Of a DNA stretch of 64,000 nt, positions 18,001-24,000 are shown one piece after another (the first letter of the stretch is position 1; each line of letters begins with the position of its first letter). The DNA comes from an uncultured Verrucomicrobiae bacterium (lineage in GTDB: Bacteria; Verrucomicrobiota; Verrucomicrobiia; Chthoniobacterales; UBA10450). Position numbers: made by a program. The stretch lies in NCBI GenBank assembly GCA_963834385.1, contig CAWIBO010000002.1, positions 320,001 to 384,000 on the forward strand, read 5' to 3'.

Positions 18001-21000
18001 CGCCCACCCGGAGCGCGCGCATTTGCGCGACAAATTCCTGTTCGAAGCGGTCGGCGATGGTGGCGTCGATGATGAATCGCTTGGCCGCGATGCACGACTG
18101 GCCGGTGTTGATCGTGCGCGATTTTACTCCCGTGGCCACGGCGGCGCGGAGGTCGGCATCCGGCCGGACGATGAACGGGTCGCTCCCGCCCAGCTCGAGC
18201 ACGGCCTTCTTGATCTGTTTTGCCGCGGCGCTGGCCACGGCGGCTCCGGCTTTTTCGCTCCCGGTCAGCGTGACCGCCTTGACCCGGTCGTCCTCAATCA
18301 GCCGCGGAACCTGGTCGGAATCGATCAGGAGCGTCTGGAAGATGCCCGAGCCGAACCCGGCTTCGCGGAAGATTTCCTCGAGGGCGAGAGCGCAGCGCGG
18401 AACATTCCCGGCATGCTTGAGCAGGCCGACATTACCCGCCATGAGCGCGGGGGCGGCGAAGCGGATGACCTGCCAGAACGGGAAATTCCAGGGCATGATG
18501 GCCAGGACGGGGCCGAGCGGCTGGCACCGGATCACCGCGCGCGCCTGGTCCAGATCGGTATTCGTCTCCGCCAGGAGGCGCTCCGCGTTCTCGGCGTAAA
18601 ACCGGCAGCCGCGCGCGCATTTCTGCACTTCCTCGCGCGCGGCGGTGAGCAGCTTGCCCATCTCGCGCGTCATGATCCGGGCCCACTCCTCCTCGCGCGC
18701 CTCGAGAACATCGGCCACGCGCATCATGTTTTGCGACCGTTCCGCAAACGAGCTGCGGCGATGCCGCGAATATGCGTCGGCCGCCCGTTCCAGCGCCTGG
18801 TCAAGCTGCGCCGGCGTGTGCGCGGAGAACTCTTCGATGGTTTCGCCGGTGGCCGGGTTGATCGAAGAGAAGGTCATGACGCACTAGACCTGCGGAGCAG
18901 GGACGTTTCAAGAAGCCGCGGCTGCGGGACGCTCTTCGGGGAGCCGTCGAGCCGGGAGGGCATTTTCACCACAGAGACCACAGAGGGCACAGAGGACGGT
19001 GAGGGTGGGTTTACAAAATTGCGCACGCGCCCGGCGGTGGGGCGAGACTCCGTCGAGCCTGGGAGCAAACGGGACAATGCCTATAACCGGAGGCCGCGCG
19101 GGATGAGGACGCGATCGAGGAGATTGAATCCCCACTGGACGAGCAGGGCGAGCACGGCGGCCGGCACAGCCCCTTGCAGAATGGTGCCGTGGTCGTTCAG
19201 GTTTAGCCCGCTGATGATCGGTTCCCCATAGCCGCCGGCGCCGATCAGGGCCGCGAGAGTGGCGGTGCCGACGTTGATCACGGCGCTGGTCTTGATTCCG
19301 GCGAGGATGGAGCGCGAGGCCATCGGCAGATAAATCTGGCGGAGACGCGCCAGGGGAGAGAGGCCGAGCACCACCGCGGAATCGCGGATGGACCGGGGGA
19401 TATCCTGGAGCCCGGTGGCGGTATTCCGCACGATCGGAAGCAACCCGTAAAGGAAAAGCGCGGCGATGGCGGTGCGGATGCTGATCCCGAAAAACGGGAC
19501 GGGCACGAGCAGGGCAAGCAGGGCGAGGGAGGGAATGGTCTGCACCACCCCGGTTGCGCTCAGGATAACGTGCCCCAGCGCTCCGCCGCGACTGGCCGCG
19601 ATGCCGAGGGGAATGCCCACGGCAATGGAGAGCAAAAGGGAGAACGCCACCAGCTCGAGATGCCGGATGGTCCAGCGCCAGAAGGGTGACCGGGTCGGTC
19701 GCAGGGTCGGGGCCTCTTCAAAGAAGAGCGCTGCGGCCCGCGCGTAGTCCCGGGTTTCTTCCGCTGCGGCGTTCAGCCGGATCATGGCCTTTTCGTCCAG
19801 GGCGCCGTCCAGGCGGTTGAACAAGGGACGGAGCGACTGCTCCGCTTCGAGACGATAAAGAAAGACCGCCTTGTATTGCGGGAAGAAATTCCGGTCATCC
19901 ACCAGGGCAACGAGATCGTTCTGGCCGATCTTGGCGTCGGTGGAGTAGGCGTCCTTCAGGTCGATATCGCCGCGCTGGAGCGCGGCGTAGCCGAGGCCGT
20001 GGTCGATGCCGCGCACGTCGGCCGGGGAAAGTCCGTAATGTTGCGCCAACGGTCGCCAGCCGTCGCGCCGGTCAAGGAATTCGTGGGTGAAACCGTAGCG
20101 CAACCCGGGGTGACGCTGCAGATCGGAGATGGTGCGGAGGTTGAGTTTCCGGGAGAGCGCGCGGGGAACCACGAGCGCGTAGGTGTTGTTGAACCCGAGC
20201 TCGGGCGAGAGACCGACGCCATGGGGCGCCAGCTTTGCCTTCAGCTCGGCGGGCGATGTTCCCGGTGGCACGCGCAGGATTTCCTCGGCGATCGTGCCGG
20301 TGTAGTCGGGGTAAAGGGTGATCTGGCCGGAACGCAGCGCCTCCCAGAGGATGATGGTGCCGCCCATGCCCTGGCGATGTTCCACTGTCTCGCCCGCGTC
20401 CTGCAAGAGGCGTCGGGCCACCTCCGCCAGGACATAAGACTCGGTGAATTTCTTGGAACCGAGAACGATCGGCTCGGCCCGCGCCGGCAGGGCGCAGGAA
20501 ATCGCGAGAACAAAGAAGCAGAGCGTTTTCATGAAACCATGGCGCCTTGCGCCTCCAAAAACTCACGCACAAACGGGGTCGCGGGCGCGCCGCGCAGATC
20601 AGGCAGGGAACCGCGCTGGACAATGCGCCCGTCCTGCAGCAGCACGATTTCGTCCGCCAAAAAACCGGCCTCGTGCAGATCGTGCGTCACGAGGATGGCC
20701 GTCTGGCCGAGCCCGGCGAAGATTTCCTTCAGCTCGCGCTGCAACTGGGCGCGCACCAGCGGATCGAGGGCGCCGAGCGGCTCGTCGAGCAGAAGCAGTT
20801 CCGGCTTGAGCATGAGCGCGCGCATCAGGCTGACGCGCTGACGCTGGCCGCCGGAGAGCTCGGCCGGGTAACGAACAAGCGCGGACGTGGGGAACCGGGT
20901 GAGGGTGCAGAGTTCGTCCACCCGGGCGCGCATGGCGTCGCGTTTCCAGCCGAGATTGCGCGCCATGAGGGTGACGTTGGCTTCCGCGGTGAGATGCGGG

Positions 21001-24000
21001 AAGAGACCGCCTTCCTGGATGACGTAACCGATCCGGCGCCGCAACCCCGGGAGAGCGGCTGGGGTGACCTTCTCGCCGGCGATCCGGACCGTTCCATGAT
21101 CCGGCGCGTCGAGCCCGGCCACAAGGCGCAGAAGAGTCGATTTGCCGCAACCGCTGGGGCCGATCACGGCGGTGGTGCGACCGGCCGGGAAAGCAAGGTC
21201 GAGCGCGGCCAGGGCAACGCAATCTCCGAACTGTTTATCAACCCCGGCGAGCTCAACGAGGGCGTTCACGCCCGCGCGGTGAAGAAGAAAACGGCGAAAT
21301 AGTTGTTCGAGTCCGTCCACATCTCCTGGCGCTCGAACCCGGCCTGCGCGGCCATCTCGGCGAAGCCTTTCGGCGTGTGCTTGTAGGAGAACTCCGTGAT
21401 GATGAAATCGTCGGGAGCGAAGGCAAAGGCCTCCTCGTCGAGATGAACGGTCTGCTTCTGCCGGCTGAGAAGGTGCATCTCGATGCGGCCCCGGGGCTCG
21501 TTGTAGACGGCGCGATGGCGCCAGCCGGCGAGATCGAAGTCGGTCCCGAGTTCCCGGTTGGCGCGGGTCAGCAGATTCAGGTTGAAGGCGGCGGTGACGC
21601 CGGCGGCGTCGTTGTAGGCCGCCTCGAGGACGGCGCGATCCTTCTCGAGGTCAACGCCGATGAGAAGGCCGCCGTCGGGGCTGGCGACACGGGCGATGCG
21701 CTTGAGGAAATTGAGCGCTTCACCGGGCTCCAGGTTCCCGATGGTGGAGCCGGGGAAGTAGACCACGGTGCGGGCGGGCTGCTCTTTGGGCGTGGGCAGC
21801 TGGACAGGCTGCATGTAATCGGCCCAGACCGGCAGCGTCTCCATGGCGGGGAAATCCGCGCGGAACCGTTCGGCCGATTCGTAGAGCTGTTCGCGCGAGA
21901 TATCGACCGGGAGATAGGCCACCGGATCCTGCAGCGCCTCGATGATCAGGCGCGTCTTGGTGCCGGCGCCGGTGCCGAGGCCGATGAGCTGGAGACGGGG
22001 ACCGAGGGCGCGCGCCATCTCGGGCGCGCTTTGCTGGAGGATGGAAAGCTCCGTGCGCGTGACGTAATACTCAGGGAGCTCGCAAATCGCGCCGAACAGC
22101 TCCGAGCCGCGATCGTCGTAAAAGAACTTGCTCGGCAACCGGGGCGGCGTTTGCCGGAGCCCACGCAGGACCTCGGCGCGGAAATCGTCCACCGTGGGGG
22201 CGGGATCAAGAGTGGCGCCGCCGGCGCCGGGATCGAACTTCATGCGAGATCGCGCGCCAGGCGGAGGCCGGTGAACTGCCAGCGCTTCTCCGGCTGGAAG
22301 AAATTGCGATAGGTCCGGCGGACATGATCCTGGGAGGTGGCGCAGGAGCCGCCGCGCAGGACGTATTGGTTGCACATGAACTTGCCGTTGTACTCGCCGA
22401 GCGCGCCGGGAGCGGCCTTGTAACCGGGATAGGGAGCGTAGGAGGAACGGGTCCATTCCCAGACATCGCCGAACATTTGCCTAAGACCGCTGCTGCTTTC
22501 GCCGGCGGGCGCAGGATGATATCGGCGCTGATTCACGAAATTGCCTTCGATGGGCTGGCCGGCAGCGGCGTGTTCCCATTCAAACTCCGTCGGGAGCCGC
22601 GCGCCTGCCCAGTTGGCGTAGGCGTCCGCCTCGAAATAGCTCAGGTGGGTCACCGGCTCGGACGGGTTGACCGGGCGAAAACCGGAAAGGGTGAAATTCC
22701 ACCAGACCCCGTCCTTCTCTTCCCAATAGAGGGGAGCCCGCCATCCGCCGGGGACCGACTCCTGCAAGGTGGACCAGCCGAGCGAGAGCCAGAGCTCCGA
22801 GCGCTCGTAACCGCGGTCCTGCATGAAATTCATGTATTCGCCGTTCGTGACGGGCCGATCGGCCAGACTGAACGGGAGAATGAGGACGCGATGGCGCGGC
22901 GATTCGTTGTCGTAGGAAAAACCGGCGCCGGCGTGGCCCATCTCGACGGTGGCTTCGTCGAAATCGACGAAGCGGAGCGGCGGCGGCGCGGTCTTGGAAC
23001 CGGGCGCGGCCTCGCGGTAAACCGGCCGGAGCGGGTTTTGCGCGAGGACATGCTTGATGTCGGTGAGGAGCAGCTCCTGGTGCTGCTGTTCGTGGTTGAA
23101 ACCGAGGATGAGAAGCGGCTCAAGTGTTTCCAGCAGGTCGCTGTCCGCTCCCTCGAGGAGCTGGAAGAGGGCATCGTCAACCGAGCGGCGGAAGGCAAAG
23201 GTCTCGGCGAGGGTGGGGCGCGAGATGAGGCCGCGCAGGTCGCGCTGGTGCATGTCGCCCGCGGCATTGTAGTAGGAGTTGAAAAGATAGGCGTACTCGG
23301 GCGCGGCGCTCTCGTAACCGGGGAGATGCGGTTTGAGCAGAAACGTCTCGAAGAACCAGCTGGTGTGCGCCAGGTGCCATTTCGTCGGGCTGACGTCGGG
23401 CATGGATTGCACGACGCAATCCTCCGGCTCCAGCGGCTGACAAAGTTCCTCGGTGAACTGGCGCACCTCGCGGTAGCGCCGCCGCAGGAGATCGGCAGGC
23501 GTGGCCGATCGTGTTGTCCGGGCCGGCTCGAGCGGGGGTGAAGAAAGCATGCTCAAGTCAACCTTCGGCGGCCTGGTCCCCCTTGGCGGCCTCGACCCGC
23601 TGGTCGTGCACGGCTTCTTCCACGCCATCGGCGACCAGGCGTTCCCCCAGCATCTCGTCACCATCCTCGGTGCCGCGCCGGGCGCGATGCCCGTGGCTTT
23701 CCGGGATGATCTCGTGCTCGTCGGACGATTGTTCCTCACCGCCATCGATCTCCTCGGGAGCATGATGGGAGGCGGTGCCGATCAGCTCGCGGCGGGCCTC
23801 CTGCCAGTCGGCCTCGGTAAATTCGTTTGGATCGCGCTCATCGATCATGGCAATCTCACGTGCCCGCTTTTCCACCATCTCGGGAGTCGCCGCGCCCATT
23901 CCATTCCCATGCACCGTGATCCTGCCCGAGCGAGATTGAGAATTGTCATTCATACATTCTTATACGGAGACGGGAGGCCTTTTGCTCGCATCCCATTCAC

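Follow-up and report, generated by a model that had tools for sequence, protein, structure and literature searches.

A soil verrucomicrobial genome carries the two core genes for the antioxidant ergothioneine and an ATP-driven betaine-type pump in one tight operon; with this pump the cell could probably recover ergothioneine or the precursor hercynine, through a pocket unlike that of the known ergothioneine importer. The operon was found on the minus strand of the window (the whole 64,000-nt stretch of DNA that was analyzed) and consists of five genes, which encode a small protein, EgtB, EgtD, an ABC ATPase and a binding-domain/permease fusion (Table 1). The genome-wide survey's note had described a four-gene egtB-egtD-ATPase-fusion operon with 4-nt overlaps at all three junctions, and the small first gene was absent from that account. 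The ORF coordinates and sequence bear out the overlaps: the junctions read ATGA at 22243-22240 (egtB stop and egtD start), GTGA at 21269-21266 (egtD stop and GTG start of the ATPase gene) and ATGA at 20532-20529 (ATPase stop and fusion-protein start). Adjacent genes thus share 4 nt at every stop/start junction. The presumed promoter region gave no match to the sigma-70 consensus or to Rfam.

Table 1. Operon genes, parts of the fusion protein and upstream flank, in window positions.
Feature	Position	Strand	Remarks
Alpha/beta-hydrolase gene	24052-24918	+	Abhydrolase_1 match
Presumed promoter region of operon, 98-nt divergent intergenic	23954..24051	-	between small first gene and + strand alpha/beta-hydrolase gene
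Small acidic protein, 131 aa, first gene of operon	23558..23953	-	stop 7 nt before egtB ATG
EgtB, type II, 436 aa	22240..23550	-	TIGR03440, PDB matches
EgtD, 325 aa	21266..22243	-	TIGR03438, PF10017
ABC ATPase, 246 aa	20529..21269	-	GTG start; PF00005
Fused substrate-binding domain and permease, 483 aa	19081..20532	-	PF04069, PF00528
N-terminal hydrophobic signal-like segment	20476-20532	-	residues 1-19
OpuAC-type binding domain	19708-20475	-	about residues 20-275
Permease	19084-19680	-	about residues 285-483

Similar overlaps were detected in relatives. By a count in which start-codon choice was biased towards short gaps, a -4 overlap was present in relatives at 52 of 66 EgtB-EgtD junctions, at 61 of 76 ATPase-permease junctions and at just 6 of 69 EgtD-ATPase junctions; the other EgtD-ATPase junctions were spaced by 0-30 nt (29), 31-150 nt (24) or >150 nt (9), or overlapped by 11 nt (1). 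Because junction overlaps recur in relatives, the gene arrangement is not due to chance.

The names given earlier to the egtB and egtD products held when these were scored against family models. The egtB product reached 582.3 bits with TIGR03440 (cut-off 360) and aligned end to end with PDB chains 8qf6, 6qki and 6o6l (about 5e-152), with the mycobacterial 4x8b being a weaker match (1.3e-44); it is classed by sequence as a sulfoxide synthase of the Chloracidobacterium kind (type II, cysteine-using). The SenA model gave 345 bits for this protein, under its cut-off of 420. The egtD product scored 391.3 bits with TIGR03438 (cut-off 290.9) and 363 bits with PF10017, and family membership shows it to be a SAM-dependent histidine N-alpha-trimethyltransferase, with hercynine as the predicted product. 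Homologues of the small protein (50-61% identical) preceded egtB in 56 of the 80 loci looked at first, and its gene was present in 77 of the 98 unique loci whose flank reached 4 kb or more. Its likeness to Pfam DUF2934 is weak and sub-threshold (E=0.023, 14.8 bits, cut-off 22), and the Atlas clusters closest to it hold hypothetical proteins of verrucomicrobial origin, with DUF2934 in 13% of the members of one cluster.

The sequences of the ATPase and fusion protein support placing them in the quaternary-amine class of ABC uptake systems, which depend on a binding protein. The sole real domain of the ATPase is PF00005 (120 bits), i.e., a nucleotide-binding domain alone; a domain search detected no C-terminal regulatory domain, no NCBIfam model scored over cut-off, and its PDB matches were generic ABC ATPase domains. 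In the fusion protein, OpuAC (PF04069, residues 21-270) precedes BPD_transp_1 (PF00528, residues 306-474), consistent with the domain order given in the note. Hydropathy peaks at residues 4-25, 288-317, 321-368 (two helices) and 449-477, with a basic loop at residues 369-407, suggest a five-helix permease with N-out/C-in topology; cleavage is predicted after ARA. Residues 20-280 were modeled by AlphaFold2 with a mean pLDDT of 93.2.

Related loci (133 unique, of which 104 had at least 3.3 kb upstream) revealed a close association of this transporter with EgtD. As most of the loci are kin from one verrucomicrobial order, the following counts overstate independence: EgtD was directly upstream of the transporter, within 1.5 kb, in 96 of the 104 loci, an EgtB/SenA-like gene was within 3.5 kb in 94, and both were near in 93 (as well as in L132 and L150 by inspection). 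Where both genes were missing from the neighborhood (7 loci), the genome encoded EgtB and/or EgtD at another site in 6 cases. In a profile at order level, one set of 151 genomes of the same order was used in every search. The transporter (E<=1e-40, >60% identity) was detected in 25 of these, EgtB over cut-off in exactly the same 25 and EgtB without the transporter in none of the 151; in 22 of the 25, EgtB was encoded on the same strand no more than about 3.3 kb upstream. An OpuAC domain of any kind was present in just 28 genomes (the 25 plus G333, G266 and G295). Within one family, 9 of 15 genomes had both EgtB and the transporter and 6 had neither, which suggests they were gained or lost together. 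Two Armatimonadota loci (L108 and L132) displayed the order EgtD-EgtB-ATPase-permease with an EgtB-like enzyme nearest to mycobacterial 4x8b (type I-like), and a further locus (L093) had the same transporter clade with SenA (519 bits, cut-off 420), SenB and EgtD, a selenoneine cluster. Since this clade follows EgtD beside type II EgtB, type I-like EgtB and SenA alike, the constant partner is EgtD. Taken together, these results support a strong, conserved and phyletically tight genetic tie between transporter and pathway.

The binding domain was compared with proteins of solved structure. As claimed previously, EgtUC chains ranked first (3.2e-38 to 1.2e-36, with S. pneumoniae EgtUC the best match by sequence), ahead of Lmo1422 (4.4e-32) and AfProX (8.4e-32). 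The PDB-search alignment was transferred by hand to SpEgtU numbering, and by this approach equivalents of all nine cage and carboxylate/imidazole contacts named in the note (K242, T296, N339, Y341, E375, R379, D381, Y419 and Y443) were found to be retained; cage and clamp residues were the same in 79-81 of the 81 relatives that were aligned. The aromatic cage and Lys/Thr/Arg carboxylate clamp of the OpuBC/OpuCC/AfProX/EgtU group point to an alpha-trimethylammonio carboxylate as the predicted ligand class.

The label 'EgtUV-like' was upheld in part: EgtUC is the best solved match and the operon encodes an uptake ABC system, but the EgtU specificity residues are replaced. G244, F293 and Y337, which Zhang et al. 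2022 describe as separating EgtU from glycine-betaine binders, correspond here to F29, Y77 and F114, the states given there for AfProX. At I243 the fusion protein has K28, and Lys or Arg is found across relatives. The ergothioneine affinity of SpEgtUC drops about 100-fold in G244F, about 30-fold in I243A and about 1000-fold in I243P. In addition, the second proven ergothioneine binder, Lmo1422/BilEB, matched no better than AfProX (115.0 versus 114.1 bits), and in a fold search EgtU and AfProX proteins were equally distant (29-32% identity). 'EgtUV-type' specificity is therefore not supported, and the transporter would work like EgtU without being an EgtU orthologue. AfProX states at the sulfur-recognition positions of EgtU favor a binding mode that differs from that of SpEgtU, perhaps with hercynine preferred over ergothioneine. 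SpEgtUC barely binds hercynine, and therefore no member of the group is a proven hercynine binder.

We consider a histidine betaine (hercynine and/or ergothioneine) a likelier cargo than the glycine betaine of a general importer, as the clade is almost confined to genomes with EgtD and a chalcogen-inserting enzyme and follows EgtD beside three such enzymes. Also in favor are W159 and H178, invariant in the transporter clade: they align with SpEgtU N383 and P401, and Legg et al. 2026 place P401 among the residues around the sulfur. The note's prediction that ergothioneine is recaptured or hercynine taken up is thus the most likely reading on genomic grounds, and stays a prediction. By family membership, EgtD trimethylates histidine to hercynine and type II EgtB adds the cysteine sulfur, while a PLP lyase presumably encoded elsewhere would complete ergothioneine. 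The ATPase and fusion protein would form a type I ABC importer, with a periplasmic binding domain tethered before the permease after the signal-like segment. The imported betaine may be ergothioneine itself and/or hercynine, which is the EgtD product, the substrate of EgtB and SenA and an oxidation product of ergothioneine. Import, if true, would spare three SAM per molecule and recapture lost product. Two genomes with the same W/H-type transporter would gain little from importing hercynine alone: G004 (locus L070), where the best EgtB-model match was 64 bits and no EgtD was found, and G333 (98% complete), where neither EgtB nor EgtD was found.

General osmoprotection, i.e., uptake of AfProX-like ligands (glycine betaine/proline betaine) co-expressed in a combined drought and oxidative-stress operon, is possible but rather unlikely. 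The four-tyrosine cage and the Phe at the G244 and Y337 positions are states of AfProX-family glycine-betaine binders according to Zhang et al. 2022, and the domain is 31-32% identical to AfProX with a TM-score of 0.90 to the open form 3mam. Table 1 of PMC13674229 (J Am Chem Soc 2026) lists ABC ATPase genes in 13.6% of the neighborhoods of EgtB-type enzymes and permeases labeled 'OpuBB/PBP2_AfProX_like' in 5.4%, and its accompanying text treats transporters as housekeeping genes. Moreover, the fusion is the sole OpuAC protein of its genome and no BCCT carrier was found there, so this system would be the route if glycine betaine is imported at all. By contrast, a general importer would be expected without EgtD too, yet transporter and EgtB share the same 25 genomes, 123 of the 151 show no OpuAC domain, and the clade sits after EgtD in varied gene orders and phyla, whichever of three sulfur- or selenium-inserting enzymes is present. 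The ATPases of the osmoregulated OpuA, OpuC and ProU systems bear CBS domains, whereas the ATPase here is a nucleotide-binding domain alone.

The transporter might instead travel with egtD as a supplier of methyl donors, with methyls of imported glycine betaine or choline regenerating the three SAM used by EgtD. Association with EgtD, not with one type of EgtB or SenA, and the glycine-betaine-like pocket are in line with this proposal, which is nonetheless very improbable: in a search of the genome that covered this one route of betaine use, no betaine-homocysteine methyltransferase scored over cut-off (BHMT model, 113 and 170 bits versus 338). Of its two PF02574 genes, one encodes a MetH half (methionine synthase model, 996 bits) and the other a bifunctional homocysteine methyltransferase/MTHFR (745 bits against a cut-off of 453). 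Adjacency by mere common descent in one lineage, suggested by the predominance of one order among the 133 loci and by the EgtD-ATPase junction being the loosest of the three (gaps >30 nt in 33 of 69), is less credible still given the joint gain or loss within one family, the recurrence of the pairing in Armatimonadota and a selenoneine cluster, and the retention of EgtB and/or EgtD in 6 of 7 genomes with unlinked copies.

The pairing of egtBD with a transporter was found in the literature as a table row alone (PMC13674229), and the part of that survey devoted to neighborhoods leaves the transporters uninterpreted, without substrate, phyletic profile or pocket analysis. B. subtilis OpuBC/OpuCC and OpuF-type fused transporters share the OpuAC fold and aromatic-cage principle at lower similarity (24-25% identity, 74-78 bits), and OpuBC/OpuCC-type proteins orient the carboxylate via the backbone, not via a lysine, according to Zhang et al. 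2022. Archaeoglobus fulgidus ProX (AfProX) resembles the binding domain in cage, identity and fold, but serves an osmoprotectant system as a free-standing binding protein, whereas the domain here is permease-fused, linked to egtD and marked by the clade-invariant residues W159 and H178. Like EgtU/EgtUV/BilE (S. pneumoniae Spd_1642-1643, L. monocytogenes BilEB and H. pylori EgtUV), the system is a two-gene ABC importer with a binding domain-permease fusion, and it shares the SBP subcluster F-III fold and the equivalents of the nine contact residues. It differs by its low identity (29-32%), by Phe for G244, Tyr for F293, Phe for Y337 and Lys/Arg for I243, and by having a signal segment, binding domain and about 5 helices where EgtU has 6 helices followed by the binding domain. 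Finally, the sections of PMC9732360 on EgtU describe it for non-producers, whereas the transporter reported here lies inside the biosynthetic operon of a producer.

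Five genes on the minus strand were found to make up the operon (window 19081-23953), with egtB and egtD placed between a gene for a small acidic protein and the two transporter genes. The genome-wide survey's note had described egtB, egtD, the ATPase gene and the fusion gene as translationally coupled; this gene set and its coupling hold, as three stop/start overlaps were read from the sequence (ATGA at 22243-22240, GTGA at 21269-21266 and ATGA at 20532-20529). The small first gene is separated from egtB by 7 nt, and its product has a weak, sub-threshold likeness to DUF2934 (PF11154; 14.8 bits, below the gathering score of 22, E=0.023), a domain carried by 13% of the members of one related Atlas cluster. 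An alpha/beta-hydrolase gene is divergent and upstream of the operon, and an aldehyde dehydrogenase gene is found 203 nt downstream. The latter was considered as a betaine-aldehyde dehydrogenase and part of the system but was dropped, as its top models were for succinate-semialdehyde dehydrogenase (660 bits) and betaine-aldehyde dehydrogenase models scored far below their cut-offs. No Rfam match was detected at E<=1 across 18500-24600, a consensus promoter scan that included the operon ends returned 0 promoter-like sites, and a terminator scan returned 4 terminator-like sites compared to 4.5 expected, none of which was at the operon end. A look-up of sequencing runs listed no RNA run with this sequence, and small shares of it (0.07-0.12) were listed for three soil DNA runs from a single study.

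Genes of the operon and of its surroundings, in window coordinates
Feature	Position	Strand	Remarks
Small acidic protein, 131 aa	23558-23953	minus	First of five operon genes
EgtB	22240-23550	minus	TIGR model over cut-off
EgtD	21266-22243	minus	Equivalog model over cut-off
ABC ATPase, GTG start	20529-21269	minus	Nucleotide-binding domain alone
Binding-domain/permease fusion, 483 aa	19081-20532	minus	OpuAC + BPD_transp_1
Aldehyde dehydrogenase	17513-18877		Downstream of operon
LOG/TIGR00730-family Rossmann-fold protein, 379 aa	24922-26061	plus	N-terminal extension; past the divergent hydrolase gene
Stand-alone GAF-domain protein	26599-27096	minus	Past the divergent hydrolase gene

Both biosynthetic enzymes scored above the cut-offs of their NCBI equivalog models (EgtD, 391.3 bits with a cut-off of 290.9; EgtB, 582.3 bits with a cut-off of 360). 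Over its full length, EgtB aligned with the type II enzyme of the Chloracidobacterium kind (5e-152), compared to 1.3e-44 for the mycobacterial enzyme. In this genome (2.9 Mb, 5 contigs, 89.6% complete), no EgtE was detected over cut-off (best 71.9 bits compared to 400) and EgtC, which belongs to the mycobacterial route, had no match; thus, we infer that the final step of ergothioneine synthesis is performed by a different PLP lyase. Co-location of EgtE is listed for just 6.2% of clusters in PMC13674229. Elsewhere in the genome (contig C5, 1405-3540 of locus L157), the methionine synthase match was found to be an N-terminal MetH half of 711 aa (model positions 10-635 of 1234), and MetH may be split.

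The transporter has the parts of a type I ABC importer by Pfam: a BPD_transp_1 permease, an ABC_tran ATPase, which is a bare nucleotide-binding domain, and an extracytoplasmic binding domain. OpuAC spans residues 21-270 and BPD_transp_1 residues 306-474 of the fusion protein, which by hydropathy has a signal-like hydrophobic segment at its N-terminus and a basic loop at residues 369-407 that was read as cytoplasmic. This profile is consistent with a binding domain in the periplasm that is anchored to a permease of probable N-out/C-in topology. By contrast, the six helices of EgtUBC come before its binding domain, as described in the text of PMC9732360, such that the domain order of the fusion protein, binding domain first and permease second, is opposite to that of EgtU. 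In one family member (G253, contig C3, 396043-397468), the match to the fused gene is split between two frames, with one piece covering residues 15-222 and an overlapping one residues 217-483, which may reflect a frameshift or an assembly error.

The tie of this transporter to ergothioneine synthesis was examined among its relatives. Two scans of species-representative genomes yielded, after de-duplication, 133 unique related loci, 104 of which had at least 3.3 kb of sequence upstream of the transporter pair. EgtD was located within 1.5 kb in 96 of these 104 loci and an EgtB/SenA-like gene within 3.5 kb in 94, with both present in 93. Inspection revealed both EgtD and an EgtB/SenA-like gene in two further loci, one with a 9-nt gene overlap (L132) and one with a 1.9-kb gap (L150). 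Neither gene was near the transporter in 7 loci, yet for 6 of these 7 the genome has EgtB and/or EgtD at another site; L070 is the sole unlinked case in whose genome neither was found. The unlinked copies L070, L041, L031 and L159 neighbor genes for sulfatase, copper ATPase/CsoR, DnaK and cytochrome bd, none of which is telling, and no ergothioneine- or betaine-catabolic genes were found around these four. At L159, cydA and cydB come immediately downstream of the ATPase and fusion pair, in the same orientation (1156-6179). All five genes, the verrucomicrobial small gene among them, were also detected as a unit at 51-68% identity in a MAG whose record is titled Candidatus Dormiibacterota (L058), which points to transfer or mis-binning.

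Co-occurrence was assessed within the order of the window, using one sample of 151 genomes that was searched three times; these genomes are kin, and the counts are not independent. The transporter (E<=1e-40, >60% identity) was present in 25 of the 151 genomes, and EgtB was over cut-off in exactly those 25, with no EgtB detected without the transporter among the 151. In 22 of these genomes, egtB is on the strand of the transporter and no more than about 3.3 kb upstream of it. Of the other three, G268 has a distance of 11.5 kb, G287 a different order, and G311, whose assembly is fragmented, has EgtB on a separate contig. OpuAC domains of any kind were confined to 28 genomes, namely the 25 plus G333, G266 and G295. 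Within one family of the order (f52), 9 of 15 genomes had both genes and 6 had neither. The transporter-EgtB unit has clearly been gained and lost whole.

Transporter relatives were also found beside other chalcogen-inserting enzymes. Two Armatimonadota loci (L108 and L132) have the gene order EgtD, EgtB-like, ATPase and permease, and their EgtB-like enzyme most resembles the type I structure from mycobacteria (264.6 bits compared to 154.6 for type II). Locus L093 is a selenoneine cluster in which SenB and EgtD are followed by a transporter that is 63% identical and has the same pocket, with SenA (519 bits, cut-off 420) encoded 6 kb upstream past an insertion. The roughly 6 kb that interrupt this cluster between senA and senB-egtD-transporter (L093 5171-18437; genome G001, contig C40) hold a small HNH/IscB-like ORF (37 bits) and a 1216-aa ORF, and senB is represented by two ORFs (12536-12970 and 12992-13489) that match the first and second halves of the SenB model. 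EgtD alone directly precedes the transporter at L149, from a Fimbriimonadia MAG; a Rieske-type oxygenase gene (6063-7145, minus strand) is divergent from egtD-ATPase-permease at this locus and has a weak likeness to the glycine betaine monooxygenase GbcA (74.7 bits, cut-off 670). The element common to these contexts is EgtD, and its product hercynine feeds both EgtB and SenA, which argues for a histidine-betaine cargo and not for glycine betaine.

The binding pocket was next compared to those of EgtU and AfProX. A search with the binding domain for protein homologues returned, as the best 120 of 4300, members of the same clade at 63-69% identity. The best solved matches by sequence were S. pneumoniae EgtUC chains (135 bits, 3.2e-38), while Lmo1422/BilEB, a proven ergothioneine binder, scored about the same (115.0 bits) as AfProX (114.1 bits). 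AlphaFold2 predicted the binding domain (pLDDT 93.2) in an open form that was about equally similar to apo Lmo1422, apo H. pylori EgtU and open AfProX (TM-score 0.90-0.93, identity 29-32%). When mapped by hand from the printed alignment (SpEgtU numbering being chain index + 229), K27, T80, N116, Y118, E151, R155, D157, Y196 and Y220 were found to correspond to SpEgtU K242, T296, N339, Y341, E375, R379, D381, Y419 and Y443. The F-III subcluster binding domain, aromatic cage, Lys/Thr/Arg carboxylate clamp and Glu375 of EgtU are thus present, by residues that are invariant or nearly so in relatives.

Five other pocket positions differ: SpEgtU G244 is replaced by F29, F293 by Y77, Y337 by F114, I243 by K28 and T274 by G58. 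The text of Zhang et al. 2022 (PMC9732360) presents Gly244, which is invariant in EgtU and makes room for a water network around the thioimidazole, and the Phe293/Tyr337 switch as the features by which EgtU can be told from glycine-betaine binders of the AfProX type, and gives an affinity loss of about 100-fold for SpEgtUC G244F. Among relatives, Phe at position 29 and Tyr at position 77, both AfProX-like states, are fixed (79/79 sequences with a residue there). The pair Y77/F114 is the reverse of the EgtU switch and resembles AfProX, as do the four-Tyr cage (Y77, Y118, Y196 and Y220) and Phe at the equivalents of G244 and Y337, where the equivalences to AfProX Y63 and F107 follow the text of PMC9732360 and not a displayed alignment. 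The alkyl CH-S donors I243 and T274 of EgtU are replaced by Lys (74/79, with Arg in 5/79) and G58; in Legg et al. 2026, I243A and I243P of SpEgtUC cost about 30-fold and 1000-fold in affinity, and T274G was silent. As judged from sequence, the transporter is a member of the EgtU/AfProX structural group that keeps the cage and clamp but lacks the EgtU-defining features tested. The survey's note had called the importer EgtUV-like: its top PDB match to EgtUC, retained cage and clamp residues (all nine SpEgtU positions) and reversed domain order were all confirmed, and the label stands for the structural group but not for Gly244, Phe293/Tyr337, Ile243/Thr274 or the domain order.

The clade also has an invariant W159 and H178, which align with SpEgtU N383 and P401; P401 is among the residues around the sulfur according to the text of Legg et al. 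2026. L/P or F/T occupies the two positions in more distant relatives whose genomes lack EgtD. The signature is not confined to producers, as it is also present at L070 and in G333, the genome of L159, which is 98% complete and in which no EgtB or EgtD was found.

Based on gene context, we favor, with modest confidence, hercynine and/or ergothioneine as the cargo of the importer. That the transporter is instead a general betaine importer seems rather unlikely: its pocket has a glycine-betaine-like look, and the fusion protein is the only OpuAC protein in this genome, where no BCCT carrier was found, but the restriction of the clade to EgtD genomes counts against a purely osmoprotectant role. 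Use of the imported betaine as a methyl donor is among the remaining and still less probable readings, as no betaine-homocysteine methyltransferase was detected over cut-off. Within the favored reading of a histidine-betaine cargo, we tentatively propose a narrower and doubtful version, in which the importer would prefer hercynine and represent a new specificity class in the betaine-binding SBP group, marked by Phe at EgtU Gly244 together with W159 and H178. Hercynine is reported to be barely bound by SpEgtUC, and therefore no relative is a proven hercynine binder. In such a salvage loop, spent ergothioneine outside the cytoplasm would yield hercynine, which would be taken back into the cell and again receive sulfur from EgtB or selenium from SenA, with no second outlay of three SAM. 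If so, ergothioneine would be a recyclable sacrificial antioxidant, and the presence of the pump after egtD beside three different chalcogen-inserting enzymes would be accounted for.

If hercynine or ergothioneine is the cargo, producers would salvage or recycle histidine betaines by a second, sequence-distinct recognition mode, and the F29/W159/H178 signature beside egtD could serve as a marker to annotate thousands of 'osmoprotectant permease' genes of soil metagenomes. If the cargo were plain glycine betaine, the operon would represent a hard-wired link between osmotic and oxidative protection.

A full-text search, with the supplements of the EgtU papers and of PMC13674229 outside its scope, found no published study of such an egt- or sen-linked importer. 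In Table 1 of PMC13674229, 13.6% of the neighborhoods of EgtB-type enzymes contain an ABC ATPase and 5.4% a permease labelled 'OpuBB/PBP2_AfProX_like', and the text of that study classes transporters with housekeeping genes. The present analysis adds a presence/absence profile across the order, the fused protein with its reversed domain order, the conservation of the small first gene, and the occurrence of the transporter beside selenoneine genes and a type I-like EgtB. Taken together, the transporter is best described as an AfProX/EgtU-group importer wedded to histidine-betaine biosynthesis. Work on bacterial ergothioneine uptake has dealt with non-producers (EgtU of streptococci, Listeria and Helicobacter). 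In the present case, a producer encodes, within its biosynthetic operon, an importer from that structural group, and across this order the importer comes and goes with the pathway.
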